DNA from: Bacteroidota bacterium
GTDB lineage: Bacteria > Bacteroidota > Bacteroidia > UKL13-3
Direction of reading: 5' to 3'
DNA: 64,000 bases
NCBI GenBank assembly: GCA_027484685.1
Contig: JAIXSO010000026.1
Span: 18,406-82,405, forward strand
Position numbers and translations under genes: made by a program. The notes beneath the pieces are model-generated. The model was not told where the DNA came from, did not search any database, and was given only the letters and a program-made list of their open reading frames with translations. The first letter of the stretch is position 1. The number at the start of each line of letters is the position of its first letter. Below are positions 29,244-47,780 of the stretch, piece after piece.

Positions 29244-30160
29244 TGTTAAAAAGTAAAAATTTAAAAGCCTACTTAGCATTTATTGCGGTAGCAATTTTTT
29301 GGGGTACCACATTCTTAGCCATTCGTATAGGCATTAATTCTGATGGTGTACATCATTTTCCTCCATTTTTATTGGCTGCATTTAGGCATTGTATTGCAGG
29401 GCTTTTAATTTGTTCCTACTTTATTCTTTACAAAAAACAGCCTTTACCTACACTTAAGCAATTTAAGTATTTTAGCATCAATGGTATATTGATGTTGGTA
29501 GGTGGTAATGGCATAATAAGTTGGGGAATGCAATACGTGGATAGTGGTTTGGCTGCTATTTTATGTGCACTTACGCCACTTTGGATAGTATTTATAAACC
29601 TGGCAATGGGTAGTAACGAAAAGGTTACCAAGGTAATGTGGGCAGGTTTTATAATTTGTTTACTAGCGCAATACCTTATTTTTTACGATAAAATAAATAT
29701 ACTCTCGGATAAAAATTACATTTATGGTTTAATAGCCATTATAGTTTCAAATATTTGTTGGGCATTTGGAACAGTTTTTTCTAAATCAAGCACTTCTCCT
29801 TTTCCTGCCTTGTATAATGCAGGCTTGCAAATGATTCCTGGAGGAGTTATTCTCTTAATTTTTTCAACTTTAACAGGCGATTGGAACAATTTTAACCCTA
29901 GTAGCAATTCTATTTGGGCTTTGGTTTATTTAATTTTATTTGGTTCTTTATTGGCTTACGGATGTTTTATGTACATAATAAAAGCGTTACCTGCAGCTTT
30001 GGTATCAACTTATGCATATATTAACACCATTGTGGCTGTCATATTAGGCGTGGTGTATTTAAAAGAAGAAATTAATGCCAAAGTAGTAGTGGCTATGTTG
30101 CTAACCATTCTTGGAGTTTACTTAGTTGGCAAAAAAGCTAAAGTAAAAGAAGCGAAATAG
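29243..30160 (+). CDS. EamA/DMT-family transporter
   Basis: 305 aa, 10 TM helices, two EamA repeats. Confidence 0.8.
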   Translation: MLKSKNLKAYLAFIAVAIFWGTTFLAIRIGINSDGVHHFPPFLLAAFRHCIAGLLICSYFILYKKQPLPTLKQFKYFSINGILMLVGGNGIISWGMQYVDSGLAAILCALTPLWIVFINLAMGSNEKVTKVMWAGFIICLLAQYLIFYDKINILSDKNYIYGLIAIIVSNICWAFGTVFSKSSTSPFPALYNAGLQMIPGGVILLIFSTLTGDWNNFNPSSNSIWALVYLILFGSLLAYGCFMYIIKALPAALVSTYAYINTIVAVILGVVYLKEEINAKVVVAMLLTILGVYLVGKKAKVKEAK

Positions 30161-30189
30161 CATTTGATTTTCTGTTTGATTTGATTTGG

Positions 30190-30558
30190 AAGTTTGCCTT
30201 TGGCTTCTAGCTGATTGGATTTTGTACTTGACGGATGCGATTTTGGAGTTTTCTTTTTGCGTTTTGGATTTTGCTGATTGGATTTTGCTTTTTGCTGGTG
30301 GCATTTTGGAGTTTTTTTCTAGCGTTTTGAAGTTTGCTGCTGGCGTTTTGGACTTTTCTTCTGACGTTTTGGAGTTGTCGGGTGCGATTTTACTTTTTGC
30401 TGGTGGCATTTTGGAGTTTTCTTCTAGCGTTTTGAAGTTTGCTGGTGGCGTTTTGGACTTTTCTTCTGGCGTTTTGGAGTTGTCGGGTGCGATTTTGCTT
30501 TTTGCTGGTGGCATTTTGGAGTTTTCTTCTAACGTTTTAAAGTTTGCTGGTGGCGTTT
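30190..30558. repeat. Tandem array of ~105-bp G/T-rich repeats (~3.5 copies) with ~21-bp internal sub-periodicity
   Basis: Direct reading shows 'gcgattttgctttttgctggtggcattttggagttttcttct(a/g)gcgttttgaagtttgctggtggcgttttggacttttcttctggcgttttggagttgtcgggt' repeated. Both strands give low-complexity repetitive ORFs. Confidence 0.8.
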
Positions 30559-30650
30559 AGGAGACTGTCCAAAAAAGTGTGTAAACGGATAAATTTAGAA
30601 CCCTATGCACAAAGCAAAAACATTTCTATTAAAAACAATTAAAATTTAAC

Positions 30651-33600
30651 TTGGTGGTAAATGATGAATTATTAAATTTGAATGTCAAAAATACAAATTC
30701 AATGATTAAATCAATTAAAAGTTTATCAAATCAATATTTCTTAGATTTAAAAAGTAAAAAAGTAAAAACAACCACATTCTTTAGAATATTTCTTTTGTTT
30801 GGTTTATTGTTTAGTTTACAATGTGTAATTGCACAACCCACCATTACTTCTTTTGCCCCATTAAGTGGAAAGGTTGGCGACACCATAACCATTTTAGGTA
30901 ATAGTTTTAATACTACTGCGGCTAACAATATCGTATTTTTTGGTGCAACTCGAGCAACAGTTTCGACAGCAACCTCAACAAGTTTAACGGTAACAGTACC
31001 AATAGGAGCGACCTTTGCACCTATTACTTTATTAAACACAGCCACGGGTTTAGCAACTTATAGTACTCAATTTTTCAACCCAGTATTTAGCCCTAGTAAA
31101 GGAAGTATAACATTGAATGATATTTCGCCAAAGGTTAACTTCACCGTAGGTTGGGCTCCAAAAACAGTATCCATTGGCGATATAGATGGGGATGGTAAAC
31201 CTGATTTGGCAATAGCTAATGAATATGACAATACTATTTCAGTATTACGCAATACTGGCAATAATGGTACTGTTAGTTTTGCACTAAAAGTGGATTTTGC
31301 AACAGGTTCAAATCCTAAAATTGTTGCCATTGGCGATATAAATGGTGACGGTAAACCTGATTTGGTAACAAATAATGTATCAAACAATTCTGTTTCGGTA
31401 TTGCGCAATACTAGCAGCAGTGGTACGATTAGTTTTGCAACAAAAGTAGATTTTACAACAGGTGGCAATCCTCAATCAGTTACCATAGGTGATTTAGATG
31501 GAGATGGTAAACCAGATTTGGCAATAGCTAGTTGGAGCAGCAATACCATTTCTGTATTACGCAATACTGGAAGTAGCGGCACCATTAGTTTTGCAACTAG
31601 GGTAAATTTCACTACAGGTTCAGGTCCTTATTCCTTAACCATTGGCGATATAGATGGTGATGGAAAACCTGATTTGGCAGTTGTTAATAGAGACAACAAT
31701 ACTATTTCTGTATTGCGTAACACTAGCAGCAGTGGTATAATGAACTTTGCCACAAAGGTAGATTTTACAACAGGTTCATCTCCTTATCAATTAGCAATAG
31801 GCGATATAGATGGGGATGGCAAGTTGGATTTAACAACTGCGAATATTGACAGCGATAGCGTTTCTGTATTGCGCAATACTAGCAGCAGCGGTACAGTTAG
31901 TTTTGCAACAAAAGTAGATTTTACAACAGGTACAAATTCAGAACCTTTTGCATTAGCGATAGGCGATATAGATGGAGATGGAAAACCTGATTTGGCAGTT
32001 GCTACCAGTGGATACAATACAATTGCTGTATTACGCAATATTAGTAGTAGTGGTACGGTTAGTTTTGGAGCAAAGGTAGATTTTGGAACAAGCCTATCTC
32101 CTTCTTTTATATCCATTGGCGATATAGATGGGGACAGTAAACCGGATTTGCTAATTACGAATAATGGAATTAATGGCACTGTTTCTGTATTGCGTAATAA
32201 CCCCCAACCTCCTCCTTCACCTCCCACCATCACCTCCTTTGCACCCTCTAGCTGTGCAATAGGTGCTACATTTTCAATAACAGGAACTGGTTTTAATACT
32301 ACACCTGCTAATAATGTGGTATTTTTTGGTGCTACACGTGCTACAGTAATTACAGCATCTGCTACTAGTTTAACTGTAATTGTGCCAATAGGTGCTAACT
32401 TTGCTCCTATTACAGTGTTAAACACGTTAACCGCTTTAGTTGCCTATAGTACTCAATTTTTTAAACCAATATTTAGCCCCACTAAAGGTAGTATTACCTC
32501 TACCGATTTAGCCGCAAAAGTTGATTTTGCAACAAATTCAGCAACTAAATCAGTAGCAGTTGGAGATATAGATGGAGATGGGAAAACTGATTTGGCAATT
32601 GTTAATGGAGGCAACAATACTGTTTCTGTATTACGAAACACTGGAAGCAGTGGTTTAGTTAATTTTGCAACAAAAGTAGATTTTACAACTGGTATAAATC
32701 CATGGTCAGTGGCTATTGGCGATATAGATGGAGATTCAAAACCTGATATGGTAATAGCTAATTATAACAGCAATACTGTTTCAATTCTACGCAATACTGC
32801 TAGTATCGGTGTACTTAGTTTTGCATTAAAAGTAGATTTTACATCAGGCATCCATCCTAAATCAGTAACTATTGGTGATATAGATGGAGATGGTAAACCA
32901 GATTTAGTAATAGCTAATGATAGCAGCAATAGTGTTTCTGTTTTGCGTAATACAGGCAGCAGTGGTTTCATTAATTTTGCACCAAAAGTAGATTTTGCAA
33001 CAGGCTCTTTTCCTAGTTCTGTAGCCATTGGCGATATAGATGGAGATGAAAAGCCTGATTTGGCAATACCTAATGATAGCAGTAATACTGTTTCTGTTTT
33101 GCGAAATATAAGTATCAGTGGTACCGTTAGTTTTGCAATTAAGGTAGATTTTGGAACCGGCACTCAGCCTACTTCTTTAGCTCTAGGCGATATAAATGGG
33201 GATGGGAGGCTTGATTTGGCAATAGCTAATAGAAGCAGCAATACTATATCTGTATTGCGTAATATAAGCACTAGTGGTGTGCTTAGTTTTGCACCAAAAG
33301 TAGATTTTGCAACTGGTTCAAGTCCTCGATTTGTAGCCATTGGCGATATGGATGGAGATGGTAAGTCGGATTTGGCAATAACAAATCAAGGGAGCAATAC
33401 TATTTCAATATTACGTAATACAAGCAATAATGCTACAGTTAGTTTTACAACAAAAGTAGATTTTATAACAAACACACAACCAAATACATTAGCCATTGGC
33501 GATATTGATGGAGATGGTAAACCTGATTTGGCGATAGAAAATGGAGGTAATACTGTTTCTTTATATCGTAATAACCCTCAAATATTTCCACCCAGCATTA

Positions 33601-36600
33601 CATCCTTTGCTCCTTTAAGCGGTACAGTAGGTTCTTCCGTAACTATTATAGGTTCTGGTTTTAACACTACACCTGCCAATAATATTATATTTTTTGGAGC
33701 AACACGTGCAACTGTAACTACCTCAACCACAAATAGTTTAACAGTAACAGTGCCAACAGGTGCCACTTTTGCACCAATAACATTAATAGATACAGGAGTT
33801 AATTTTACTGTACACAGTCCCCAGTTTTTCAATCCAATATTTAGCCCTAGTAAAGCTATTATTACCACTTCAGATATTGCGGCAAAATTAGATTTTTCGA
33901 CCGGTACAAGTCCTCGATCAATAGCCATTGGCGATATTGATGGAGATGGCAAATCTGATTTGGCAATCGCTAATACAAACAGTAAAACTGTTTCAATTTA
34001 TCGTAATACTGGCAAAATTGATACGGTAAATTTTGCAACAAAGGTAGATTTTACTACACTTTGGAGTCCTCTATCGGTTGCTATTGGAGACATAGATGGA
34101 GATGGAAAAGCTGATTTGGTAATTGCAAATGCAGGTAGTGATATTGTTTCTATATTTCGAAATACAAGTAGTAGTGGCATTATTAATTTTGCATCAAAGG
34201 TTGATTTTATTACAGGGTCGCTTCCTTATTCAGTAGTAATTGGAGATATAAATGGAGACGGTAAACCAGATTTGGCATTAACTAATTATAATAGCAATAC
34301 TGTTTCAGTGTTACGCAATACGGGCTTAAAAGGTTCAATAAGTTTTGCCACCAAAGTAGATTTTGCAACAGGATCAAATCCTTGTTCGGTAGCTATTGGA
34401 GATATAGATGGGGATGGTAAACCTGATTTGGCGATTGCTAACACAGGCAATATCTATACTGTTTCTGTATTACGTAATACAGGTAGTAATAATTCGGTTA
34501 ATTTTGCCACAAAGACAGATTTCACTACGGGTTCAAATTCAAAGTCCATAGAAATAGGCGATATAGATGGAGATGGAAAACCCGATTTGGCTATAGGCAG
34601 TAATTCTGTTTCTATTTTACGCAATACGAGTAGTAGTGGTTCGATTAGTTTTGCAACAAGAGTAGATTTTGCATCAGTATCAACTCCTTATTCATTAAAA
34701 ATTGGTGATATAAATGGAGATGGCAAACCTGATTTGGCAATAATTAATCAAAGCAGCAATAAACTTTCTATATTACGTAATACAAGTATCAGTGGTACAG
34801 TAGATTTTGCAACAAAGGTAGATTTTGCCTCAGGTACAAATCCTCTTTCAATAGCCATTGGCGATATTGATGGGGATGGCAAATCTGATTTGGCGATAGC
34901 AAACGAAAACAATAATTCTGTCTCTATTTTAAGAAATTATCCTCAACCACCGCCTCCTACCATTAATTCATTCACTCCAACCAGCGCAGTTGTAGGTGCT
35001 TCAATTTCCATAACTGGTGTAGGTTTTAACACGGTACCTACAAAAAATATAGTGTTTTTTGGTGCAACTAAAGCAATTGTAACAGCAGCAACTGACACCA
35101 GTTTAATGGTATTGGTACCTATAGGTGCCTCTTTTGCACCAATAACTATATTAAATACTGCTAACACTTTATCAGCTTATAGTACACAATTTTTCAACCC
35201 AATATATAGTCCTAGTAAAGGAAGTATAACCACAAATGATATAACAACAAAGCAAGATTTTACAACTGGGCCGCAATCCAGAGCTGTAGCTATTGGAGAT
35301 TTGGATGGTGATGGCAAACCCGATTTGGCTGTAGTTAATAATGTTGGTGCTACTGTTTCCATATTAAGAAATACAGGAAGCATTGGTTCGGTTAGTTTTG
35401 CAACCAAGGTTGATTTTTCTACGGGTACAGATCCTGAGTCAATATCTATTGGAGATATAAACGGAGATGGTAAACCTGATTTAGTTGTGACAAATTTTGG
35501 AAGCAGCACTGTTTCAGTTTTTCGCAATATAAGCATGAATGGAGCAATTAGTTTTGCTACAAAAATCGATTTTGCAACAGGTACAAATCCCAGTTCAGTG
35601 GCCATTGGCGATATTGATAAAGATGGCAAACCAGATTTGATAGTAACTAATTATAATAATGGCTTTAACTCTATTTCTGTCTTTCGTAATACCAGTAACA
35701 GTGGTACAATTAGCTTTGATTTAAAGGTAGATTTTGAAACAGGAGGTAATCCGGCCTCAGTAGCTATTGGCGATATTGATGGAGATAATAAACCCGATTT
35801 AGCAATAGCCAATCAAATGAGCAATACTGTTTCAATACTACGGAATACAAGTATTTATGGAACAGTTAGTTTTGCAACAAAGTTAGATATTACAATGATT
35901 TCTGAGCCTTTTTCAATTGCCATTGCTGACTTAGATGGCGATGGAAAATCTGATTTAGCAATAGCAAATGTTAGCAGTATTGGAAAATCAGTTTCTGTCT
36001 TAAGGAATACCAGTAGCATTGGTTCAGTGAGTTTTGCATCAAGGGTAAATTTTTCGGCAAATGGAGATCCTTATTCAGTATCCGCTGGCGATCTAGATGG
36101 AGATGGAAAGCCTGATTTGGCAATCGCTAGTTTTAGCAGTTCAGTTTCAGTATTGCGAAATACAAGTGTGAGCGGTACTATTAATTTTGCTACTAGGGTT
36201 CCTTTTACAACAGGCTCATTTCCACGATCAGTAGCATTGGGTGATATAGATTGTGACGGCAAACTTGATTTGGTGGCATCTAACAGTAACAGCCAAACTG
36301 TTTCCGTATTGCGTAATAACCCACAATTTCCTCCCACAATTTCCACAATAGGTAATTTAACACCATTTATTTCTTGTACTGGCAGTGCTTCAGCACAGCA
36401 AACATTTACAGTAACTGGAACTAATTTAATAGCAAATTTAATGGTAATACCACCAATAGGCTTTGAGATAAGTACTACTTCTGGTTCAGGTTTTGGAAAC
36501 AGTGTTAGTTTATCTCCTTCCTCAGGCACAATAAACGCAATCTTATATATACGTTTAACCAATTCGGTAACAGGTTCGCCAAGTGGAAATATAGTTTGTG

Positions 36601-37787
36601 CCTCAACAATTGCTGATACACAAAATGTAGCTGTATATGGTTTAGTAAAAGCAACATCAACTAGTACTACAAATATTTCAGTCTGCTCAAGTACATTACC
36701 TTTTACTTGGAATAGTAGAGCATATAATTCAAGTAGAACAGATACTGTTTATTTAACCAATTTCGTTGGTTGTGATAGTATTACCATTTTAAAATTAACA
36801 GTTAAACCTACAAGTTCATCAACTTCTAATATAAGCATTTGCCCTAGTGCATTGCCTTATACTTGGAATGGAAGAACATATAATTCCAATAGCATAGATA
36901 CGGTTTATTTAACCAATTCCGTGGGTTGCGATAGTATTACTATTTTAAAATTAACTGTAAAACCTACAAGTTCATCAACTTCTAATATAAGCATTTGTCC
37001 TTCAGCACTGCCTTATACTTGGAATGGAAGAACATATAATTCCAATAGCATAGATACTGTTTATTTAACTAATTCAGTAGGTTGCGATAGTATTACCATT
37101 TTAAAACTAACAATAAAACCAATTAGTACTTCAACAAATAACATAAGTATTTGTCCGAGCGCATTGCCTTATACATGGAATGGATTAATCTTTAACGAAT
37201 CAGGAACGCAGACCAAAACAGGTTTAACTAATTCGGTTGGATGTGATAGTTCAGCAACTTTAAATTTATCGGTAAATCCAATTCCAGCAACTTCCAATAT
37301 TACAGGCTTTACCAATGTAGCAAGGTTAGATACAGCTACTTATTCGGTAATAGGAACAAGTGGTTCAGTTTTTAATTGGGCAACTACAAAAGGATTGGTT
37401 CAAACAGGCGCGGGTACAAATCAAATAAAAGTAAAATGGAATACAGCCGGAATGGATACTTTAAAAGTTACTGAAACTTCTAATCAAGGTTGTGTTGGTT
37501 CACAAAAAACACTATTGGTTAATATTGGTCCTGCTACCGGAATGAATGAAATCAATGCAAGTAATAATATACTGGTTTATCCAAATCCATTTAACGAAAC
37601 CATATTTATTTCATTGCTTAATAATTCAGGTTTGAACAAAGCTATTTTATATGATTTATTAGGTAAAGAGGTTTTAACTACCCATAAAAGTGAAATAGAT
37701 GTGAAAGAGTTAAAATCTGGCGTTTATTTGATAATGGTGATTGATAATAATGGCAATAGTTATAGCCAAAAATTGATTAAAAATTAG
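30651..37787 (+). CDS. Giant T9SS-secreted protein with 4 x [IPT/TIG domain + 7 FG-GAP repeats] plus C-terminal Cys-containing repeats and a type-A CTD
   Basis: 2378 aa with signal peptide. Twenty-eight 'IGD(I/L)(D/N)GDGKPDL' FG-GAP calcium-binding motifs in four sets of seven. Each set is preceded by 'P(T/S)ITSFAP..G....I.G.GFNTT' IPT-like domains. Four ~57-aa 'ISICPSALPYTWNG...VGCDSITILKLTVKP' repeats. C-terminal 'VYPNPF...GVYLIMVIDNNG' T9SS CTD. Antisense ORFs inside the gene are repeat artefacts. Confidence 0.85.
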   Translation: MVVNDELLNLNVKNTNSMIKSIKSLSNQYFLDLKSKKVKTTTFFRIFLLFGLLFSLQCVIAQPTITSFAPLSGKVGDTITILGNSFNTTAANNIVFFGATRATVSTATSTSLTVTVPIGATFAPITLLNTATGLATYSTQFFNPVFSPSKGSITLNDISPKVNFTVGWAPKTVSIGDIDGDGKPDLAIANEYDNTISVLRNTGNNGTVSFALKVDFATGSNPKIVAIGDINGDGKPDLVTNNVSNNSVSVLRNTSSSGTISFATKVDFTTGGNPQSVTIGDLDGDGKPDLAIASWSSNTISVLRNTGSSGTISFATRVNFTTGSGPYSLTIGDIDGDGKPDLAVVNRDNNTISVLRNTSSSGIMNFATKVDFTTGSSPYQLAIGDIDGDGKLDLTTANIDSDSVSVLRNTSSSGTVSFATKVDFTTGTNSEPFALAIGDIDGDGKPDLAVATSGYNTIAVLRNISSSGTVSFGAKVDFGTSLSPSFISIGDIDGDSKPDLLITNNGINGTVSVLRNNPQPPPSPPTITSFAPSSCAIGATFSITGTGFNTTPANNVVFFGATRATVITASATSLTVIVPIGANFAPITVLNTLTALVAYSTQFFKPIFSPTKGSITSTDLAAKVDFATNSATKSVAVGDIDGDGKTDLAIVNGGNNTVSVLRNTGSSGLVNFATKVDFTTGINPWSVAIGDIDGDSKPDMVIANYNSNTVSILRNTASIGVLSFALKVDFTSGIHPKSVTIGDIDGDGKPDLVIANDSSNSVSVLRNTGSSGFINFAPKVDFATGSFPSSVAIGDIDGDEKPDLAIPNDSSNTVSVLRNISISGTVSFAIKVDFGTGTQPTSLALGDINGDGRLDLAIANRSSNTISVLRNISTSGVLSFAPKVDFATGSSPRFVAIGDMDGDGKSDLAITNQGSNTISILRNTSNNATVSFTTKVDFITNTQPNTLAIGDIDGDGKPDLAIENGGNTVSLYRNNPQIFPPSITSFAPLSGTVGSSVTIIGSGFNTTPANNIIFFGATRATVTTSTTNSLTVTVPTGATFAPITLIDTGVNFTVHSPQFFNPIFSPSKAIITTSDIAAKLDFSTGTSPRSIAIGDIDGDGKSDLAIANTNSKTVSIYRNTGKIDTVNFATKVDFTTLWSPLSVAIGDIDGDGKADLVIANAGSDIVSIFRNTSSSGIINFASKVDFITGSLPYSVVIGDINGDGKPDLALTNYNSNTVSVLRNTGLKGSISFATKVDFATGSNPCSVAIGDIDGDGKPDLAIANTGNIYTVSVLRNTGSNNSVNFATKTDFTTGSNSKSIEIGDIDGDGKPDLAIGSNSVSILRNTSSSGSISFATRVDFASVSTPYSLKIGDINGDGKPDLAIINQSSNKLSILRNTSISGTVDFATKVDFASGTNPLSIAIGDIDGDGKSDLAIANENNNSVSILRNYPQPPPPTINSFTPTSAVVGASISITGVGFNTVPTKNIVFFGATKAIVTAATDTSLMVLVPIGASFAPITILNTANTLSAYSTQFFNPIYSPSKGSITTNDITTKQDFTTGPQSRAVAIGDLDGDGKPDLAVVNNVGATVSILRNTGSIGSVSFATKVDFSTGTDPESISIGDINGDGKPDLVVTNFGSSTVSVFRNISMNGAISFATKIDFATGTNPSSVAIGDIDKDGKPDLIVTNYNNGFNSISVFRNTSNSGTISFDLKVDFETGGNPASVAIGDIDGDNKPDLAIANQMSNTVSILRNTSIYGTVSFATKLDITMISEPFSIAIADLDGDGKSDLAIANVSSIGKSVSVLRNTSSIGSVSFASRVNFSANGDPYSVSAGDLDGDGKPDLAIASFSSSVSVLRNTSVSGTINFATRVPFTTGSFPRSVALGDIDCDGKLDLVASNSNSQTVSVLRNNPQFPPTISTIGNLTPFISCTGSASAQQTFTVTGTNLIANLMVIPPIGFEISTTSGSGFGNSVSLSPSSGTINAILYIRLTNSVTGSPSGNIVCASTIADTQNVAVYGLVKATSTSTTNISVCSSTLPFTWNSRAYNSSRTDTVYLTNFVGCDSITILKLTVKPTSSSTSNISICPSALPYTWNGRTYNSNSIDTVYLTNSVGCDSITILKLTVKPTSSSTSNISICPSALPYTWNGRTYNSNSIDTVYLTNSVGCDSITILKLTIKPISTSTNNISICPSALPYTWNGLIFNESGTQTKTGLTNSVGCDSSATLNLSVNPIPATSNITGFTNVARLDTATYSVIGTSGSVFNWATTKGLVQTGAGTNQIKVKWNTAGMDTLKVTETSNQGCVGSQKTLLVNIGPATGMNEINASNNILVYPNPFNETIFISLLNNSGLNKAILYDLLGKEVLTTHKSEIDVKELKSGVYLIMVIDNNGNSYSQKLIKN
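36640..37260 (+). repeat. Intragenic ~171-bp tandem repeats (4 copies; the two central copies almost identical at nucleotide level)
   Basis: Near-identical DNA blocks at ~36781-36950 and ~36951-37120 encode the Cys-containing 57-aa modules. Confidence 0.75.
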
Positions 37788-37873
37788 GTAATTATGGTGT
37801 AGTTATTTTATGTTCATGGTTGGTGTCCTAGCAATCATTCCAAATCGATTGGTGAGGACACTAGCCGAGGACT

Positions 37874-37969
37874 AAAGAAGAAATTAATGCCAAAGTTGTA
37901 GTAGCTATGCTTTTAACCATTGCCGGAGTTTGGCTAGTTGGGCGTAAAGGAAAAATAGCCAAGCAATAA
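37874..37969 (+). pseudogene. Orphan diverged copy of the 3' end of the EamA transporter gene
   Basis: Translates to 'KEEINAKVVVAMLLTIAGVWLVGRKGKIAKQ*' versus EamA C-terminus 'KEEINAKVVVAMLLTILGVYLVGKKAKVKEAK*'. About 80% nucleotide identity over the first ~70 nt. An upstream in-frame TAG and no start codon. Confidence 0.7.
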
Positions 37970-38021: not shown

Positions 38022-39356
38022 ATGAAAAAAATTTATATTTTGTTCTGTTTTATTTTATTGAACGTTAACGTATTTTCTCAAAATGGATTATATGGTATTG
38101 TAAGAAAAAATTATTATTCAATTGTTAGAAATCCTACAGATACTAATCAAACATTCGAACAATTTGATTCTGCAACAATTCGATTAGGGTTTTTAAATCC
38201 GTCATCAGGACAAGTTAGTAATATAGGCAGCAATTTATACAATCAAACAATTAACCTAACTGGAGCTGCTTTAAACCCTTACGACAGCACGTTTATTTAT
38301 ATTGGAGCAGATAAAATTAATACAATTGATTTAAATACGGGTGTAATTATTAATAGTATTCCTTTGTCAAATCCTATACAAAGTAGTTACTTTGATAACT
38401 TTAGGTTTAATAATTCGGATAGTACCATGTATGGTTTAGCGCGAAGAAGTTATTTGGATCCAATTACTAACACCTTAGTTGGTGAAGTTTACATGGCTAA
38501 AGCAAATACCAATACAGGCGTAATAACGCAAATTTCTCCAAGTTCTGTTGGAAATGGATATGCATTATTGGGCAGTTCAATTGATCCTTATCAAATGGTT
38601 TATTATTATTCAGATGGAACACATATTATTGGATTAGATATTTATACTGGCTTGGTTTACAGTAAGGTGGTAATTAACAATGTGTTTGGAACAACGTTTG
38701 GAAACTTTACTTACAATTGTAATGATAATAAAATATATGGGCTAATTGGAAAGAACTATTTTAGAACTGTAACTGATTCACTTGGTACTTATGAAATACT
38801 GGATTCAAATACACAAACTTTGGGCACTATCAATCCTAATTCTGGAATTGTAACTCAAGTTTCGGCCAATACATTAAGTAAAGTTGGATATACAATAAAT
38901 GGAGGTTCTACAATTGACCCTAATACCAACACTTATTATTTTAATATAGGTACCAAAGTAATTGGTGTATCAATTTTTGATGGAACTATAGTTAGCGATC
39001 CTAGTTTTATTTTTTCTGATGGACAGTATTTTGATTTAATAAGAAACTTACAAAGCTGCTATTCGGCTTATTCATTGAGAAAAAAACCAACAAATGTTGC
39101 CTCTGTTAATTCTCAAAAAAATAATATACAAGTTTATCCTAATCCGTTTAAAAATACGGTAAGTGTAAATGGAGGTAATCAACAAATAGGAACAGTGGAG
39201 ATTTACTCTATATCAGGTAGTTTAATAAAGAAACAAAACATAACTGAAAATGGCCAAGAAATTGAACTTTCAGAATTAAAAAGTGGAATTTATTTTTTAA
39301 AAATAAATACTCCAGAAAACGAAAGTACCTTTATAAAAATTTGCAAATCGGAGTAA
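38022..39356 (+). CDS. T9SS-secreted protein with type-A C-terminal sorting domain
   Basis: Signal peptide. C-terminal 'VYPNPFKNTVSV...GIYFLKINT' CTD. Confidence 0.7.
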   Translation: MKKIYILFCFILLNVNVFSQNGLYGIVRKNYYSIVRNPTDTNQTFEQFDSATIRLGFLNPSSGQVSNIGSNLYNQTINLTGAALNPYDSTFIYIGADKINTIDLNTGVIINSIPLSNPIQSSYFDNFRFNNSDSTMYGLARRSYLDPITNTLVGEVYMAKANTNTGVITQISPSSVGNGYALLGSSIDPYQMVYYYSDGTHIIGLDIYTGLVYSKVVINNVFGTTFGNFTYNCNDNKIYGLIGKNYFRTVTDSLGTYEILDSNTQTLGTINPNSGIVTQVSANTLSKVGYTINGGSTIDPNTNTYYFNIGTKVIGVSIFDGTIVSDPSFIFSDGQYFDLIRNLQSCYSAYSLRKKPTNVASVNSQKNNIQVYPNPFKNTVSVNGGNQQIGTVEIYSISGSLIKKQNITENGQEIELSELKSGIYFLKINTPENESTFIKICKSE

Positions 39357-39388: not shown

Positions 39389-39422
39389 AAATCCCGAAGC
39401 GAAAGCAGAGGGATTTTTTTGT
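39389..39422 (+). terminator. Rho-independent terminator
   Basis: 'aaatccc'...'gggattt' stem followed by a T7 run. Confidence 0.6.
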
Positions 39423-39473
39423 TAATAATTAATTTTAACAAATTAATTCAAACTATTCAATAAAATAATAAGT

Positions 39474-42400
39474 TTGAAATTGTTACAAACAAGCATAATG
39501 AATAAAGAAACCCATATTCAAAATTATTTTAAAACGGTTAAAGCTGCTTCAAATGAACTTTCTAAAAAGGAAGCTTTTAAAGATTTATTGAATAGAATAT
39601 ATGCTAATGAGGAGTCTTATACAAAACTGATTGATAGAATGACCTTAGGTTCTGAAAAAGCCATTTTTAATATTCCAAAAGGTGATAAAAATAAAACAGG
39701 AAGGGCTGATACCAAATACAATCAAGTAATTATTGAATTTGAAAAAGACTTACGTAAAACTGGAGAACATGCCAAAGAACAATTAGCTGAATACTTTTTT
39801 GGAACTTATAAAAGTGGAGGAGATTATAACCTAACCTTAATTGCTACCGATTGCATAACTTGGAAAATATTTGTACCAAGTTTTGAAACCTTTGAAAACA
39901 TAAGCTCAATAAAGCTACGCGAAGTAAAATTGGAAGAGTTAAAAGGTGGAACTTTTGTTTTAAGCGAAAATAATGGCAATGATTTCTTTTATTTTATCGA
40001 CCGTTATTTGTTTAGAACGGAAGCTCAAAAAGCTACTTTAGAATATATTGAACAAGATTTTGGTTTACAATCTGCTGTATTCATCAACTCATTTAAACAA
40101 CTAAAAGAACATTTTAATGATGTAAAAAAATATGGTGAAGTGCAAGTAAGCTTTGAACAATGGCGTAAGTTTTTGTTTATAGCTTATGGTATAGAAGAAT
40201 TACCAGAAAATATATTTTTAGTACATACTTATTTAAGTGTTTTTGCTAAGATGCTTGCCTATACTGTTCTTACTGATGATGATTTTATTGACGACCAAGA
40301 GCTAGAGCAAATTATTAATGGAAGTATTTTTGAAACATTAAATGTAAAAAATTTAACTGACAATGACTTTTTTCATTGGGTAAAATCTGAACGAAGTTTT
40401 AGAGAACTAAAATCTGCTTTTAGGCAAATAGCCCTGGAGTTAAGTAATTATAGTTTTAAAAATGTAGATGAAGATGTTTTGAAAGGGGTGTATCAAAACT
40501 TAATTGATATTGATACTCGTCACGCTTTGGGTGAATACTACACACCCGATTGGCTTTGTGAAATGGTGGTAAGAGAAATGCCAATAAAAACAGATAGTAA
40601 AACATTAGACCCTAGTTGTGGAAGTGGTTCGTTTTTAAGAACAGTTATAGATAAACTTAAAAATGAAAATAAAACAATAACAGCAAATGAATTGGCAAAT
40701 AATGTTTATGGCATAGATATTCATCCATTAAGTGTGCAAATAGCTAAAACTACCTTACTTGTTGCTATTGGAAAAGATTTAATTCGAAAATCGAAAAAAC
40801 CAGTTAGTTTAAACGTATTTTTATCAAATACCATATTGATTCCTGATGGTGTAAAAAACCTATTTGGTGGTGATTTTACCTTAACTATTGATAGAGAAAA
40901 ATATAAACTAAATACCCAAGTTTTAGAAGATGATAAACTATTCGATGAAGCATTAAATGTAGCAGATGCTTTGGCAGAGTTAACCTTGGGTAAAAAGGCT
41001 GTTGACCAAACTACTTTTATTAATAATTTAAAGAAAAGTTATCCTTATGCACCTATTCCTGTATTAAACGATAGCTTGTATAAAATATATTTAGGTTTGA
41101 AAAGAACCAAAGAAAGCGGTAGAGATAGTATTTGGAAGTTTATACTTCAAAATATGTACAAGCCATATTTTTTAAAAGAAAGATTCGATTTTATAGTGGG
41201 TAATCCGCCTTGGTTTACTTGGAGTAGCGTTAAAAAAGAGGATTACCAAGATGAACTTAAAACACTTGCAGAAAGCTACTAAGTAATGCCTGAACGCAAA
41301 GCCAATTTTCCACACTTGGAAATCGCAGCCATTTTTTTAGCGCATTGCAGCAATTATTTTTTAAAAGAAAATGGTCAATTAGCATTTGTATTACCAAGAA
41401 GCTTTATGAGTGCTGACCAACATGAAAATACACGAAATGGCAAAGCCAAAGGATTTACCTTAACACAAATTTGGGATTTGGATGCTGTTACTAATTTATT
41501 TAGGGTGCCTAGTTGTGTTTTATTTTCCGAAAAGAAATTAAAAACTTCAGTAAGCCAATACCACAAAGGTATAAATGGAATAAGCTTTAAGGGGCGAATA
41601 AAAAAACATAATTGTAGTATAAAGGAAGTAGAAGATGCTGGAGTATTAACTCAAACCGAAAATACATTTTACTATACTACATTGGGAAAAAGCAGTGCTT
41701 TTAGTGTTTCTAAGCAATCAAAAAAAGGAAGTCAAAATAAAACGAGTTATTACAAAACTTCGTTTAAACAGGGAGCTACATTAGTGCCTCGAAATTTTTA
41801 TTTTGTAGAGCTAACACAAGAAGAGCCCGAAGATTGGGACGATAGGTTGATAAATATAAAAACCAGTTCTGAAAGCATGAAACAAGCCAAAAAACCTTGG
41901 AATGAAATAGACATGCACGGACAAATAGATAGCCAATATTTTTTTAGAACAGCTATTTCTAAAAATGTTTTGCCTTTTGTTTTGTATAATCCCGAATTGG
42001 TAATACTTCCTATAAAAATAAACCAAGAAAATAAACAAATAACCATGCAAACGCATGAGGAAATTTTGAAGGACGGTTACTATATCACAGCGCAATGGTT
42101 TAAGAATGTAGAAAATGTTTGGAATATTCTTAAAACTGAAAAAAATGAAAAAATTTCAAGCGGAAATTATTTGAATTGGCAAAACAAATTAACCGATCAA
42201 GATTTAAATAAAAAGTACATGGTACTTTATACTGCAAGTGCAAAAAATGCAAATAGCTGTGTGGTAAAACGGGAAGATTTAAAATTGGAATTTATAGTAG
42301 AAAGTACAACTTATGTATTTTTTTCAAACAATAAAAATGAAGCTTATTATGTTTCTGCTTTACTAAATTCAAGTGTTCCAAATGAATTAATGAAAGACTT

Positions 42401-42671
42401 TCAAGCAAAGGGATTATTTGGAGAACGCCATGTACATAAAAAAATATTAGACATTCCTTTTCCACAATTTAACGAAATGAATCAAGCTCATATTGATTTG
42501 GCTTTACTATCAGAAAGCTGCCATACCAAAGCTGCCAAATGGATGAGAGAAAACAATATTCCTGATAATTTAGACCCAATAAAACTAGGCAAAGTTAGGG
42601 TTCAAATAAAAGCTTATTTGAATGAGGAGATGAAAAAGATAGATAAGTTGGTGAAGGGGGTGATAAAATGA
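39474..42671 (+). pseudogene. MmeI-like single-chain (type IIG/IIL-like) N6-adenine DNA methyltransferase/RM gene interrupted by one in-frame TAA (41280-41282)
   Basis: ORFs 39474-41282 and 41286-42671 share a frame. Motif I 'LDPSCGSGSFL', 'GEYYTP', motif IV 'GNPPWF' lie before the stop. Conserved post-catalytic 'LAFVLP' plus ~350 aa TRD-sized tail lie after it. N-terminal 'D...IIEFEKDL' segment is reminiscent of a PD-(D/E)xK nuclease head. Confidence 0.7.
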
Positions 42672-42678
42672 TAGGTTA

Positions 42679-43830
42679 ATGTTTAAAGTTTTACATTGGA
42701 AAAAAATTATTTTTAATATTATTCGAGTTGTCATCATGAAAAAAGAATCATTGTTTTATAACCCAACATTTAGTGTTTTTATCCAAGCTTTTATTGTAGT
42801 TTGTTTAGGTTTATGCACTATTCCAATAATTGGTTTTGTATTTTCTTCAATATTTAAAATAGCTCCAAATAATTTAGGAGATACAATAGGAGGAACAATG
42901 GGGCCATTCGTTGCTTTATTTGCTGCCTTGTTAACTTTCTTGGCTTTTTATGTTCAATATCAAGCAAATCAGTCGCAGAGGAACGACATAAAAAGAGAAA
43001 GATTTGAAACACAATATTATGAAATAATTAAATTGCACAGAGAAAATGTTTCGGAAATAAAAATAAGAAGTGATAATGGTTCTATTGAAAGTAGATATGC
43101 ATTTGTAACAATGTTCAATGAATTTAAATTTATTTATCGTTTTTGTTATGACACGTATTTTAGAATGGTGGAAAGAGGAAAAATTGAGATATTAGATAAT
43201 GAAGAGTTGATTGTTAAAGAAAAAATTCTCAATATGTCTTACATTCTATTTTTTATAGGTGTAGGTCCAAATTCATTTGATTTAAGTTTTGCTTCTGCTT
43301 CTGAAAAATCTAAAAAATTACACAAAGAATGTTATGAAGAATTAGAAAAATTGAAGTTAAAACATGTTGATAATAACTATTTTTCAAAATTTAATTTTGA
43401 AAAATTAGGAATAGAAATGGTACTTCAATTAAAATACAAACCTTTTGGAGGGCATATGTCGAGATTAGGACATTACTACAGGAATTTATATATGGCAATA
43501 AAATATGTAGATTCACAAGACTTTTTAAGTGAAAATGAAAAATATAGTTACATTAAAATAATTAGGGCTCAATTGTCAAATCATGAACAAGCCCTAATAT
43601 ACTACAACGTAATTTCTGGTTTTGGTTGGCGTTGGATAGAAAAAGAGAAAAACTATTTAGTAAAATATCGACTCATTCATAATGTACCTACAACATTATT
43701 AGAATTTGCAATTAAACCAAGAGACCATAAAATAATTGGTGAACAAATAAAAGAGTGGGAAGAAGTCAAGAATAAAAATCACAAAGAAGACTTAAATGGA
43801 TGGACACCTTTTTTTGAATGGGAAGAATAA
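42679..43830 (+). CDS. Two-TM membrane-anchored protein, possible abortive-infection-like protein
   Basis: Two N-terminal TM helices then a ~290-aa cytoplasmic domain. Architecture resembles the 'putative phage abortive infection protein' family. Likely true start at 42736 (MKKESL). Confidence 0.4.
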   Translation: MFKVLHWKKIIFNIIRVVIMKKESLFYNPTFSVFIQAFIVVCLGLCTIPIIGFVFSSIFKIAPNNLGDTIGGTMGPFVALFAALLTFLAFYVQYQANQSQRNDIKRERFETQYYEIIKLHRENVSEIKIRSDNGSIESRYAFVTMFNEFKFIYRFCYDTYFRMVERGKIEILDNEELIVKEKILNMSYILFFIGVGPNSFDLSFASASEKSKKLHKECYEELEKLKLKHVDNNYFSKFNFEKLGIEMVLQLKYKPFGGHMSRLGHYYRNLYMAIKYVDSQDFLSENEKYSYIKIIRAQLSNHEQALIYYNVISGFGWRWIEKEKNYLVKYRLIHNVPTTLLEFAIKPRDHKIIGEQIKEWEEVKNKNHKEDLNGWTPFFEWEE

Positions 43831-43842
43831 AAAAATTATAAA

Positions 43843-44802
43843 ATGGAAAAGAAATATTCAGTCTTTGTAAGTTCAACTTATGAAGATTTAAAAGAACATA
43901 GAGAAAAAGTAATATATAGTTTAGTTGAAAATAATTATTTTCCTGTTGCTATGGAATTTTTCCAAGCTTCAAGCGATAATAAATGGGAGCGAATAAAAAA
44001 GTTAATTAAAGATTGTGATTATTTTATTTTGATAGCTGGCGGTAGGTATGGAGAAATTCAATACGATGATAAAAGTTTTATTGAGTTGGAGTATGATTTT
44101 GCATTAGAAAATAATATTCCTGTAAATGTTTTTGTTGTAAATTCAATTGACGAACTTAGAAGTAAAGATGTTGATCATGGAGAAAAAAGAGAAAGTTTAA
44201 ATAGGTTTATCAGGAAAATTCAGGATGATAAAATATCAAAATCATACAAAAATGTTGATGATTTAAAAGCTGTAGTAGTTAATTCATTAAATCGATTAAT
44301 TATAGATAGTCCAAGAGTTGGTTGGATAAGGGGTACTACCTATAAAATTAAAGAAACTTTAAATGAGAGAATTGATTTCGAAATAGACATTACTGAAATT
44401 ACCAAATGGATAAATACTGAAAATATTACAATAGAATATAACCCAATTGGTAAAGATTATTCCATATTTTCTTTTGAAAATTTTTCTTCCGAATCTCTTG
44501 CTTTAAGTGTAAAAGAAGTTTGGGATATACTTCGATTAAAATGTTTGCAAGAACTTCCTGAAACGGAAATAGGAAAGAGTTTAAATTTGCTCATCGACAG
44601 AAAAATAAAGGTTAGTATAAAAGATAAATTTTCATTTAATGACACCAATATTTTTAAAGATTCATTTGATAATGTAATAAGAGTTTTTGTTGATAGAGGT
44701 TTAATTGAACCTTCTTTAAAAAGTAAATTAAGTATTAAAAATCAAAAAGATTGCTATTGGAAGTTATCTTCATTGGGAGAAGTTATCAATAGTGGAAAGT
44801 AA
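43843..44802 (+). CDS. DUF4062 domain protein with uncharacterised C-terminal domain
   Basis: N-terminus 'YSVFVSSTYEDLKEHREKV...FPVAMEFF...DCDYFILIAGGRYGEI...ELEYDFA' matches the DUF4062 consensus. Confidence 0.7.
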   Translation: MEKKYSVFVSSTYEDLKEHREKVIYSLVENNYFPVAMEFFQASSDNKWERIKKLIKDCDYFILIAGGRYGEIQYDDKSFIELEYDFALENNIPVNVFVVNSIDELRSKDVDHGEKRESLNRFIRKIQDDKISKSYKNVDDLKAVVVNSLNRLIIDSPRVGWIRGTTYKIKETLNERIDFEIDITEITKWINTENITIEYNPIGKDYSIFSFENFSSESLALSVKEVWDILRLKCLQELPETEIGKSLNLLIDRKIKVSIKDKFSFNDTNIFKDSFDNVIRVFVDRGLIEPSLKSKLSIKNQKDCYWKLSSLGEVINSGK

Positions 44803-44825
44803 AAATAACTTTAATAATTATTTTT

Positions 44826-45923
44826 ATGGATAAACTCATTCCAACATTTACTGATATCAGTAAATGGAACATAAACGTATATACTAATACGGGAGGTACA
44901 CGTAGCAAGCAAATTGCGGTGCATCCTGAAACTGATAAGGAATATTTTTTTAAAGGTTCTAAAGTAATTAAAGATACCAATGAAATACGTTATCCTACTG
45001 AATTTTGGTCTGAAATAGTTTCGTCAAAAATAGGTCAATATTTAGGTTTCGATATGCTTGATTATAATATTGGATTTAACCAAAATAATCAATTGCAAAA
45101 AATTGGTTGTCTTTCGAAATCAATGATTGAAAACTCTGAAAATAGATTAACAGAAGGAAAAATGTATTTGATGGGTTTTAATTCAAATTACAATCCAAAT
45201 TTGAAGGAACATCAGAGTTTATATACTTTTCAATTCATAAGTGAATCTCTTATAAGTTTTGATTTTGAACTATTTATCAATAAGGTAATAGAAGTTATAA
45301 TCTTTGATAGTATAATTGGCAATTCTGATAGGCATCAAGAAAATTGGGGAATAATTACTAACTATAACCACACCATAAGGGGTATAGATGCACATTTAGA
45401 AACTGAAGTTAAGAATTTTTTTACAAAACAAAAATTTCGTGTAGCTAAATGGTATTTAAAGCTAATTTCTAAAGCACAGATTAATATGAAAAAAATTCCA
45501 AAATCAATTTTATCTCAGCAATCATCATTTGCTCCAAATTTATTTGCTCCAATATATGATAGCGGTTGTTGCTTAGGGAGAGAAATTGAAGAGGAAAGAT
45601 TAAATAAAATGTTGCTAGATAATAATATGTTAGAAGCTTACGTTAGAAAAGGTGAATCAGAAATTCATTGGGATGGGTTTGAGAAAAAAAAGAAGCATTT
45701 TGAGTTAATTAATTTGGTTAAAGAAATACATAAATACCAAGTTTGTGAAGTTATTGATAGGGTAGTGAATAAATTCAAGAATGAAGATATACAAACAATA
45801 ATATTTAATATTGACAGAAATATTCCTCCTCATTTAAGCCAATATAAATTAGCAGATAATAGAAAAGAGTTAATGAATAAAATTATAAATTTGCGCATTG
45901 AAAAGTTGAAAGAGATAAGATGA
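44826..45923 (+). CDS. HipA/HipT-like serine/threonine kinase (toxin-type kinase core lacking the HipA N-subdomain)
   Basis: Catalytic-loop-like 'IIGNSDRHQENWGII' and 'FAPIYDSGC' correspond to HipA '(I)GNTD.H.KN(F/W)' and 'AP.YD' motifs. 365 aa. Confidence 0.6.
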   Translation: MDKLIPTFTDISKWNINVYTNTGGTRSKQIAVHPETDKEYFFKGSKVIKDTNEIRYPTEFWSEIVSSKIGQYLGFDMLDYNIGFNQNNQLQKIGCLSKSMIENSENRLTEGKMYLMGFNSNYNPNLKEHQSLYTFQFISESLISFDFELFINKVIEVIIFDSIIGNSDRHQENWGIITNYNHTIRGIDAHLETEVKNFFTKQKFRVAKWYLKLISKAQINMKKIPKSILSQQSSFAPNLFAPIYDSGCCLGREIEEERLNKMLLDNNMLEAYVRKGESEIHWDGFEKKKKHFELINLVKEIHKYQVCEVIDRVVNKFKNEDIQTIIFNIDRNIPPHLSQYKLADNRKELMNKIINLRIEKLKEIR

Positions 45924-46573
45924 AAGAGATAGGAAACATACATTTGTGTTGGCGTCAAGCAAAAGGATCCAATAGGATTCCCATAGGTACTATTAAACAT
46001 AGTGTTACAGGTGGAGTACGTTTCTCTTATAATCAGAATGAAGTAGCAAAAGCAAGAAAATTAGGTTTTCAGCATTACGAAGGATTTCCAGATATAACAA
46101 AGGTGTATGATGAAAATGTGCTAGAAATATTTGGACAGAGGTTAATTAAAAGTGAACGTTCTGACACAAGTGCCTTTTATGAATTTTGGGGAATAGATGC
46201 CCAATATAAAGATAACGATTTCTATATGCTTGCTTATACTCAAGGACTTTTACCAACCGATAACTATGAGTTTTTGGCAGACTTTCACCCAATGCCTAAT
46301 CTATCGTTTGTTTCTGAAATTACAGGTTTAACTGAAGCTAAGTTAGAAGCTGATTTGTTAAAAGTTGGAGATAAATTGACTTATAAACGAGAGCCAAATA
46401 ATGTCTTTGATAATAAAGCAATAGGTCTATACTTAGGAGAATTGTATTTAGGCCATGTTAAATTAATTCATAGTAGAGTGTTTTATAAAACAAATACCTT
46501 ATTAAAAGTTAGTGTTCATAATATTGAAAAGAATGGTTTCTTGAAAAGGGTATTTATTAAGATAAATAGTTAG
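45920..46573 (+). CDS. HIRAN-domain protein
   Basis: C-terminal 'LKVGDKLTYKREPNNVFDNKAIGLYL..LGHV' fits the HIRAN consensus (REP.NPYD.NAI.V....LG(Y/H)V). Start overlaps the kinase stop (ATGA). Confidence 0.65.
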   Translation: MKEIGNIHLCWRQAKGSNRIPIGTIKHSVTGGVRFSYNQNEVAKARKLGFQHYEGFPDITKVYDENVLEIFGQRLIKSERSDTSAFYEFWGIDAQYKDNDFYMLAYTQGLLPTDNYEFLADFHPMPNLSFVSEITGLTEAKLEADLLKVGDKLTYKREPNNVFDNKAIGLYLGELYLGHVKLIHSRVFYKTNTLLKVSVHNIEKNGFLKRVFIKINS

Positions 46574-46723: not shown

Positions 46724-47585
46724 ATGAAAAAAATGAACTTGTTGGGGCTGATGGTTTTATGGTCTGTGTTTTCAACTGCTCAAATTATTCCTAATGGTGG
46801 TTTTGAAAATTGGACCACAACTGGCAATTATGCTAATCCTGATGGATGGTTTACTTTTAACGCTACGTTTTCTACCATTAATGTTTTTACTGTTGAAAAA
46901 GGAACACCGGGCGCTACTGGCAATAGTTATGCAAAAATTACTTCAAAAAATATTGGCGATAATTTGTTTCCTGGAGCTTTATTAATGGGTTCATTGGTAA
47001 ACAATGAAGTAATTCCTGGTATGGCCATTAATACTAAACCAGCATTTTTACTTGGAAAATACCAATCTAAAATTGGTAAAGACGATACTGCTTTGGTAAT
47101 AGTGCAGTTTACCAAATGGAATAATTTAACCAATACAAGAGAATTAGAAGGGATTGGTATTTTAGATTTTATAGACCTAAATACCGACACTTGGACTGAA
47201 TTTATAGTGAGCATGGATTATTTTGGAAACATTACTCCCGATTCGTGTTCCATAACAATTACCTTAGGCAATTCACCTCCAGCCTCAGATAACTTTTTTG
47301 CTGTTGATGATCTAATTTTTTCAAACACATTGAATTCTGTAAATGAAATAAATAAAATTACAACGCAAGTTTATCCCAATCCTAACGATGGTAAGTTTCT
47401 ATTAACTCAACAGCAAATATGAGCTATATTCAAATAACCAATATTTTAGGTGAAGTAGTTTTTTCTGAAAATATAAATGGTAATTCTGTTCCAATTACTT
47501 TAAATAATTTGGCAGCTGGATTGTATTTTTATTCCATTACTACTGAAAATAATAAGGTTATAAAAGGAATGATTACTATTAATTG
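46724..47585 (+). pseudogene. T9SS cargo gene with its C-terminal sorting domain in a different frame (frameshift or sequence error near 47400-47420)
   Basis: Main ORF ends '...QVYPNPNDGKFLLTQQQI*'. The continuation 'SYIQITNILGEVVF...GLYFYSITTENNKVIKGMITIN*' (47408-47585) completes a type-A CTD in the -1 frame. Confidence 0.5.
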
Positions 47586-47780
47586 ATTTTCGAATTTTAG
47601 TTTCATTTCTTTGTCCGAAATGTTTTTTTTATCAATTTAACAGAAAATAATCACTTGGAAAACCTAATATTGGCCGCAGGTAATGGAAAACAATTAGGTA
47701 AAGCCAAGGAGATGCTTGCAGCATGACTATTGAAGTTTTTTTTTGCCTATCAACTATATCAATTGTCACTATCCAAACAA

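Follow-up and report, generated by a model that had tools for sequence, protein, structure and literature searches.

Four probably independent defence modules, among them a hipIN kinase-HIRAN pair and a DUF4062 protein related to Swarozyc and Evangelion, lie head to tail in a chromosomal island of a Bacteroidota bacterium

A 64,000-nucleotide stretch of the Bacteroidota bacterium assembly GCA_027484685.1 (contig JAIXSO010000026.1, positions 18,406 to 82,405 of the forward strand), referred to here as the window and used for all position numbers unless another contig is named, carries a string of defence-type genes. Six co-directional open reading frames (ORFs) on the + strand fill positions 39474-46573 (Table 1). 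They comprise the two pieces of an interrupted type IIG restriction-modification (RM) gene, an AbiC-like membrane protein gene, a DUF4062 gene, and the genes of a short HipA-fold kinase (HipI) and of its HIRAN-bearing partner (HipN). Going from 5' to 3', they are separated by 3, 7, 12 and 23 bp, and the last two overlap by 4 bp; an initial annotation of this DNA had these distances right apart from the first, which it gave as 4 bp. The same annotation had regarded every member of the string as a defence-type gene, and the domain calls behind this view are real. It had also presented the combination of DUF4062, kinase and HIRAN in one operon as new, a claim that does not stand, as the parts have already been described, hipIN or PDC-M03 on the one side and Swarozyc and Evangelion on the other. 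The apparently novel operon is thus two known modules placed side by side, and the claimed new system is removed.

Table 1. Features of the defence string and its borders, in window coordinates (L002, genome locus JAAFJM010000046.1; L083, a Logan contig)
Feature	Position	Strand	Evidence
Terminator-like hairpin and U-run, 3' of the upstream T9SS cargo gene	39389..39421	+	7-bp stem, -11.1 kcal/mol, z -2.65
TAAGTTTG, Bacteroidetes-type -7 promoter-like box, 29 nt before the RM ATG at 39498	39469..39476	+	Motif scan
Interrupted type IIG single-chain restriction-methylase gene (ORFs 39474-41282 and 41286-42671)	39474..42671	+	PADLOC REase_MTase_IIG; Pfam N6_Mtase, Eco57I
In-frame TAA nonsense codon; CAA (Gln) in relatives	41280..41282	+	Sequence comparison with L002 and L083
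AbiC-like membrane protein, putAbiC domain at residues 259-338	42679..43830	+	PF16872 2.9e-22, hydropathy
DUF4062 TIR-like protein with stalk and auxiliary (AUX) region	43843..44802	+	PF13271 5.6e-25; KpSwz match
HipI-type short HipA-fold Ser/Thr kinase	44826..45923	+	PADLOC PDC-M03A, motifs, model
HipN (HipS-like + HIRAN), NxxDxxA motif within 46391-46432; overlaps hipI by 4 bp	45920..46573	+	
Right-flank T9SS cargo gene, with a frameshift near 47419; parts of 232 aa and 55 aa, the latter with Por_Secre_tail	46724..47586	+	Pfam

The kinase and the HIRAN protein at the distal end of the string are the already described hipIN pair and the PADLOC candidate PDC-M03. hipIN was introduced as a predicted toxin-antitoxin module made of the short HipI kinase and of HipN, a HipS-like domain joined to HIRAN, and abortive infection triggered by DNA ends was proposed for it (Gerdes et al. 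2021; PMC8262856). The PDC set of PADLOC comprises 145 untested candidates embedded in RM, BREX and DISARM loci, and the text that describes it does not name PDC-M03 (Payne et al. 2024). In our PADLOC search the kinase matched PDC-M03A (2.8e-58) and HipN matched PDC-M03B (1.5e-23). Judged by Pfam alone, the initial assignment of the two proteins to HipA and HIRAN is below threshold for both, with an E-value of 0.016 for the kinase against HipA_C and 20.6 bits for HipN against HIRAN, where the cutoff is 24.7; NCBIfam was uninformative for five of the six window proteins. The assignment is nevertheless supported by PADLOC, by motifs, by homologues and by structure models. The kinase has a Gly-rich loop (NTGGTRSK, residues 21-28, 44886-44909), a catalytic loop (GNSDRHQENW, 45318-45347) and a Mg-binding YDSG (within 45546-45572), and the key residues of the loops and of YDSG are invariant across 23 homologues. 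A Foldseek search with its AlphaFold model, which has a predicted local distance difference test (pLDDT) score of 86, found CtkA as the best match (E 3e-8), then the HipT kinases of Legionella and E. coli, and then HipA; the profile of the kinase family also matched CtkA (1.4e-9). The kinase lacks N-subdomain-1 of HipA, and the HipS/N-subdomain fold sits in the next gene instead. All 39 homologues of HipN examined match the HIRAN family, and the model of HipN matches the HIRAN domains of HLTF and Rad5.

Around 1000 hipIN relatives were detected in public sequence data, and the two genes are strictly paired. In 78 of 81 loci HipN is the gene directly 3' of HipI, mostly overlapping it by 4 bp as here; two of the three exceptions are at contig ends and the third has a partial kinase match only. 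The pair was furthermore present in 19 of 20 bicistronic loci among 36 viral contigs, while the other 16 encode a single ORF of ~550 amino acids (aa) that matches both profiles, and phrog_26212 likewise spans HipI and HipN. The fused kinase-HipS-HIRAN ORFs, which are HipL-like, are those of loci L189-L204 on IMG/VR viral or prophage contigs. This comparative evidence marks the kinase and HipN as one unit, and the window offers a clean Bacteroidota example of a widespread module that is also found on viral contigs and in fused form.

From these features a possible mode of action can be proposed for the pair. HipN would supply the missing N-subdomain-1 of the kinase in trans, in a HipS-like manner, and its HipS-like domain would hold HipI off. 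Binding of HIRAN to free 3' ends of incoming or replicating phage DNA could relieve the inhibition. The freed HipI would then be expected to phosphorylate an essential factor of translation, by analogy with HipA and HipT, whose targets are aminoacyl-tRNA synthetases, and the infected cell would stop growing.

The gene 5' of hipI encodes a DUF4062 protein that exceeds the Pfam cutoff for this family. Two preprints describe single-gene anti-phage systems in which a DUF4062 protein with an auxiliary region depletes NAD+, namely Swarozyc (Osinski et al. 2026) and Evangelion (Ibarra-Chavez et al. 2026). The Swarozyc protein KpSwz works as a single gene, is activated by the phage portal and has the catalytic residue E97, and the solved constructs are described as E97A (Osinski et al. 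2026). In the Evangelion protein Eva01 the corresponding features are F11, E87-Y88 and a Q/W/E motif (Ibarra-Chavez et al. 2026). A profile of 27 full-length relatives matched the solved KpSwz (PDB 10wc) from end to end (E 1.4e-96), and residues 2-177 of the window protein alone matched residues 3-179 of KpSwz (E 1.1e-33). Glu83 (codon 44089-44091) belongs to an E83-Y84 pair that is invariant in the family alignment, and it is aligned with an Ala in the deposited KpSwz chain, which is taken to be the E97A position because the solved constructs are described as carrying this substitution. Trp48 and Glu49 of the Q/W/E motif are present, and the near-invariant Gln47 is Lys both in the window (43981-43983) and in the 68%-identical relative P0122. 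PADLOC gave only a weak ThsB match (4e-4) for this protein.

The auxiliary region (residues 170-319) is divergent, since an exhaustive single-sequence phmmer search of 1.84 billion representatives returned its own cluster only. At the profile level it matched a family alignment built without the window protein and P0122 (hhalign probability 92.9%, E 3.6e-7), and phrog_15411 spans residues 1-313 of the protein. Taken together, the sequence comparisons point to a protein of the Swarozyc/Evangelion single-gene NADase kind. By homology, it would be a TIR-like NADase that is auto-inhibited until its AUX region meets a phage component, and once triggered it would deplete NAD+ and thereby abort the infection.

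If DUF4062, kinase and HIRAN protein formed one conserved system, as the initial annotation had suggested, the three genes would be expected to occur together elsewhere. This was examined in 80 genome loci (L002-L081) with HipI relatives of 36-99% identity, all from Bacteroidota, in which DUF4062 was sought with the Pfam model and a family hidden Markov model within 10 kb on either side of hipIN, and reciprocally in 80 metagenome loci with DUF4062-AUX relatives, in which HipI and HipN were sought within 6 kb. Conserved co-occurrence largely fails, and the adjacency is confined to the lineage of the window. DUF4062 stands beside hipIN in L002 (JAAFJM010000046.1) alone among the genome loci, and it is absent from the other 79 as well as from all 36 viral loci. 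Outside these samples it was seen in the Logan contigs L001 and L168, which are identical to the window (100%), and in L082; the corresponding identity is 99% for L002 and ~68% for L082. HipI or HipN was found in none of the 80 DUF4062 loci. Four Logan loci carry the closest kinases (68-75% identity). L082 has DUF4062 5' of HipI, with an extra ORF of 83 aa in between, whereas DUF4062 is not at HipI in L083, L084 and L087, where a 332-aa gene followed by an 83-aa gene, T5orf172 or DUF5677 takes the 5' position.

The upstream neighbours of HipI are diverse in general. Among 75 loci we counted aldehyde dehydrogenase in 18, HsdS in 11, N6_Mtase, Eco57I, ResIII and HSDR_N in three to four each, and DUF4062 in one, and the genes downstream of hipIN are housekeeping genes. 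In many Flavobacterium genomes an aldehyde dehydrogenase gene lies 5' of hipIN and a DUF6646 gene 3' of it, a context that suggests a fixed chromosomal site. The 83-aa ORF lies directly 5' of HipI both in L082 (3031-3282) and in L083 (4496-4747), and the two copies are 73% identical; the L083 copy has no Pfam match, and the ORF is absent from the window.

The first gene of the string encodes a type IIG enzyme and is broken. Its two pieces together span the 1100-position PADLOC REase_MTase_IIG profile, from 56 to 636 (6e-59) and from 652 to 1088 (4e-14), and the gene matches N6_Mtase (3.6e-12) and Eco57I (1.3e-9). The true start is likely the ATG at 39498. Methylase motif I (DPSCGSGSF, 40608-40634) and motif IV (NPPW, 41202-41213) are both in the first piece, and the C-terminal target-recognition part lies 3' of the stop. 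The pieces share one frame and are parted by a single TAA and one sense codon, in agreement with the initial description of the gene as broken. At the break the window reads ...AGCTACTAAGTAATG..., where L002 and L083 read ...AGCTACCAAGTAATG...; the intact ORF has 1065 aa in L002 and 1058 aa in L083. As both relatives have CAA at this position, the window carries a C>T nonsense mutation. Exact-sequence look-ups of the C-terminal piece returned no match, and the nonsense codon is thus without confirmation in an independent assembly. The single mutation would have knocked out the enzyme in this genome: as it falls just after motif IV, it separates the target-recognition half from the nuclease/methylase half. 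The second codon past the nonsense codon is an ATG (TAA GTA ATG, the last two codons at 41283-41288), and as far as the sequence goes the recognition half could in principle be made as a separate polypeptide by re-initiation. The label MmeI-like, which the initial annotation had attached to this gene, is weakly supported. The match to MmeI_Mtase is borderline (27.5 bits, cutoff 27), and the Pfam models of the N-terminal, helical, target-recognition and C-terminal domains of MmeI gave no match at E<=0.01. A PDB sequence search with the RM protein found type I M subunits only.

The second module of the island would be the AbiC-like protein. It scores 79.4 bits against putAbiC (cutoff 22) and matches phrog_8999 (8e-23), and the hydropathy profile has hydrophobic stretches at residues 28-63 and 69-96; the initial call of an Abi-like protein with two transmembrane segments is thus borne out by the putAbiC domain and the two N-terminal hydrophobic stretches. 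It matched no PADLOC model, and exact-sequence look-ups with two alternative start codons found nothing. The protein occupies a slot whose content is swapped between relatives. In L002 an unrelated 278-aa DpnII/MboI-like gene fits exactly between the RM stop and the DUF4062 start, and in L083 the slot holds a 332-aa LprI-like gene together with the 83-aa ORF.

Comparison with L002 and L083 revealed a mosaic pattern of identity along the whole string. Relative to L002, the flanking T9SS gene is 81-89% identical and the 5' part of the RM gene 94-99%; the RM recognition region (42070-42369) falls to 68%, the slot gene is unrelated, and the DUF4062-hipIN block returns to 97-100%. The high identity extends over the first two-thirds of the RM gene, and the drop would fit a swap of the target-recognition region. 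Relative to L083, residues 1-80 and 241-365 of the kinase are 88-100% identical, residues 81-240 only 33-65%, and HipN 95%. The central part of HipI (residues ~81-240, 45066-45545), which includes a poorly conserved helical insert, is therefore hypervariable or recombined with respect to L083, and it may be a specificity determinant. To judge from the sequences, this is the pattern of an island that exchanges cassettes and specificity regions by recombination. Such cassette exchange explains the block-like appearance of the DUF4062-HipI-HipN trio in two close relatives.

Co-transcription of the string from the box ahead of the RM gene is plausible from the layout of the genes. When the 120 nt ahead of every gene start in the string were scanned for TAnnTTTG, this box, at 39469, was the sole one located at the distance of a promoter; another, at -34 from HipN, is inside hipI. 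The box is weak evidence, because the background rate of the motif is 7.5% per 100 nt. A sigma-70 promoter scan was uninformative, with 57 sites against 58 expected, and of 79 loci only 15 have TAnnTTTG in the 100 nt 5' of HipI, at positions that vary from locus to locus. The initial annotation had taken the tight spacing to argue for co-expression and for a functional unit. The former is plausible, but a single functional unit is not supported, as the modules occur alone elsewhere and the AbiC slot varies.

Both flanking genes were confirmed by Pfam as T9SS cargo genes, as had been stated. The upstream one (38022-39356) bears Por_Secre_tail, and the terminator that had been placed directly before the string was found as the hairpin listed in Table 1, which marks the left edge of the island; a consensus terminator scan missed it because its loop is long. 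The right-flank cargo gene is outside the defence string. Its sorting domain begins in one frame (VYPNPNDGKF...) and goes on in another as the 55-aa ORF, and the region of the frameshift is 100% identical in the independent Logan contig L168 (SRR16126889). It is followed by clpB, which is encoded on the other strand. Farther along, at 56.3-58.2 kb, an apparent core region holds a tRNA cluster beside a 395-aa ORF whose position and size suggest tuf. The idea that a prophage or integrative element carries the string was considered and rejected: there is no tRNA at the island edges, the nearest in the window being at 56.3 kb, and the context looks chromosomal, without a recognisable prophage. On the upstream side, a 36-bp direct repeat (30062-30097 and 37874-37909, 94% identity) brackets a 7.7-kb segment (30108-37873) that carries a 2378-aa FG-GAP/TIG/Por_Secre_tail gene (30651-37787). 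The segment is missing in L002, where both repeat copies are joined, and is an insertion or deletion polymorphism beside the island. Just 5' of the giant T9SS gene there are tandem copies with a period of ~105 bp, ~96% identical, at 30281-30558.

We consider it likely that the locus is a chromosomal defence island of four independently acting modules, arranged head to tail and probably transcribed together, and not one new system. The sequences themselves establish the domain identities, the strict pairing and the fusion of HipI and HipN, the lack of DUF4062 beside hipIN outside one lineage, and the nonsense lesion; the enzymatic activities and triggers proposed above, as well as the co-transcription, are what we infer for these modules. 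Several observations weigh against this reading. A search of the available literature for experimentally tested hipIN, PDC-M03, HipL or HIRAN-kinase defences found none. No TAnnTTTG box lies within 120 nt 5' of AbiC, DUF4062 or HipI. The upstream neighbour of HipI is co-directional in 72 of the 75 loci, often within 0-90 bp and whatever its function, and HipI expression is therefore often coupled to whatever lies upstream. Moreover, the window and L002 share the trio at 97-100% identity, the adjacency is kept in L082, and all known members of this DUF4062 subclade (n=3) sit 5' of HipI. These last points would suit a three-component system of DUF4062, HipI and HipN in this lineage, in which, for example, HIRAN-sensed DNA ends could activate the kinase and this switch on the NADase, or in which the divergent AUX could dock on HipI or HipN. 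The gap of 23 bp without a promoter-like box between DUF4062 and HipI, the persistence of their adjacency at 68-69% identity in L082 and the lack of any single-sequence homologue of the subclade AUX outside its own cluster speak in the same direction. However, the instances are only two or three and not independent, and in L082 the 83-aa ORF stands between the two genes. In L083 the kinase is 75% and HipN 95% identical to those of the window, yet the 332-aa LprI-like gene replaces DUF4062. Neither direction of the co-occurrence survey found the combination outside L002, the AUX is still homologous to that of stand-alone Swarozyc, and KpSwz works as a single gene. A three-component system is accordingly quite improbable in our view, and it is very improbable that in this narrow lineage a DUF4062 NADase with a uniquely diverged AUX has become functionally wired to hipIN, which would couple NAD+ depletion to kinase signalling and to the recognition of DNA ends by HIRAN.

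The proposal of the initial annotation that all five or six genes make up one obligate system is harder still to reconcile with the data. It draws on the tight co-directional spacing and the one promoter-like box before the first gene, but that first gene is broken here and intact in relatives, L002 and L083 have unrelated genes in the slot of AbiC, and each module is found alone elsewhere, while conserved five-gene synteny across lineages was not seen; we regard it as extremely improbable. The role of hipIN itself could be mainly that of an addiction (toxin-antitoxin) module that stabilises the island or mobile DNA and does not sense phage. In architecture it belongs with the Hip toxin-antitoxin family, its original description predicted a module of this type (PMC8262856), and it lies at the distal end of variable gene strings and also on viral or prophage contigs. 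Retention of HIRAN in 39 of 39 homologues and in the fused form, on the other hand, argues for DNA sensing beyond neutralisation, and hipIN recurs beside RM genes, the PDC class being defined by embedding in RM, BREX and DISARM loci. Addiction as the main role seems rather unlikely, and the two roles are not mutually exclusive. Decay of the island, with most of its function lost in this genome, is also quite unlikely; it might be suspected from the nonsense codon in the RM gene, from the frameshift in the neighbouring T9SS cargo gene, which an independent assembly shares, and from the Lys at the near-invariant position 47 of DUF4062. Against this, the AbiC-like, DUF4062, HipI and HipN ORFs are intact, and the catalytic residues are conserved. 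The trio has 97-100% identity to L002, and two Logan contigs carry it unchanged (100%). Lys47 is shared with P0122 and is therefore a lineage trait, not a fresh lesion.

Read as an island of independent modules, the locus illustrates cassette shuffling at the island level, where near-identical backbones differ in the RM recognition region, in a slot gene and in the central part of the kinase. These comparative points could guide experiments on the signal sensed by HIRAN and on the phosphorylation target of the kinase.

Compared with known systems, the RM gene resembles type IIG and MmeI-like enzymes in that the single chain of its relatives combines an N-terminal region, a gamma-class N6-adenine methylase and a C-terminal recognition region. 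It differs from them in being broken by the TAA, and a canonical D...ExK nuclease motif is not evident in GRADTKYNQVIIEFEK. The AbiC-like protein shares with AbiC (putAbiC, PF16872) a C-terminal putAbiC domain and N-terminal membrane-spanning stretches; it differs in having no PADLOC model match, and its function is putative. The DUF4062 protein shares with Swarozyc and Evangelion the core with catalytic E83-Y84 and an N-terminal aromatic motif, a stalk and a C-terminal auxiliary region, and a single-gene architecture of ~320 aa within a defence island. The differences are the strongly diverged AUX, seen only at the profile level, and the replacement of the Gln of the Q/W/E motif by Lys; the phage portal that triggers KpSwz should not be assumed to trigger the window protein.

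The kinase-HIRAN pair agrees with hipIN, which belongs to clade XI of the Hip kinases (PMC8262856), in its short HipA-fold kinase without N-subdomain-1 and with the Gly-rich loop near the N terminus, in the order of kinase and HipN, in the HipS-like and HIRAN domains of the partner and in the lack of an antitoxin with a helix-turn-helix. It differs in several respects. The window kinase has 365 aa, compared with 279-321 aa reported for the short-kinase group, it contains a poorly conserved helical insert at residues ~178-235, and its nearest solved structure is CtkA, not HipT or HipA. The host is a member of the Bacteroidota, whereas Actinobacteria, Firmicutes, Proteobacteria and Cyanobacteria are listed for hipIN (PMC8262856). 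With PDC-M03 the pair shares strong matches of both proteins to the A and B models and the frequent vicinity of type I RM genes to its relatives, but hipIN stands mostly at the distal end of an RM or defence string with housekeeping genes 3' of it, not embedded between RM genes. As in HipBST of E. coli O127 and Legionella, the kinase and the HipS-like domain are on separate polypeptides, and the fused kinase-HipS-HIRAN form of 16 viral contigs related to the window family recalls HipL. Unlike HipBST and HipL, the pair in the window has no gene for a HipB-like DNA-binding protein, and its HIRAN domain is appended to the HipS-like domain.

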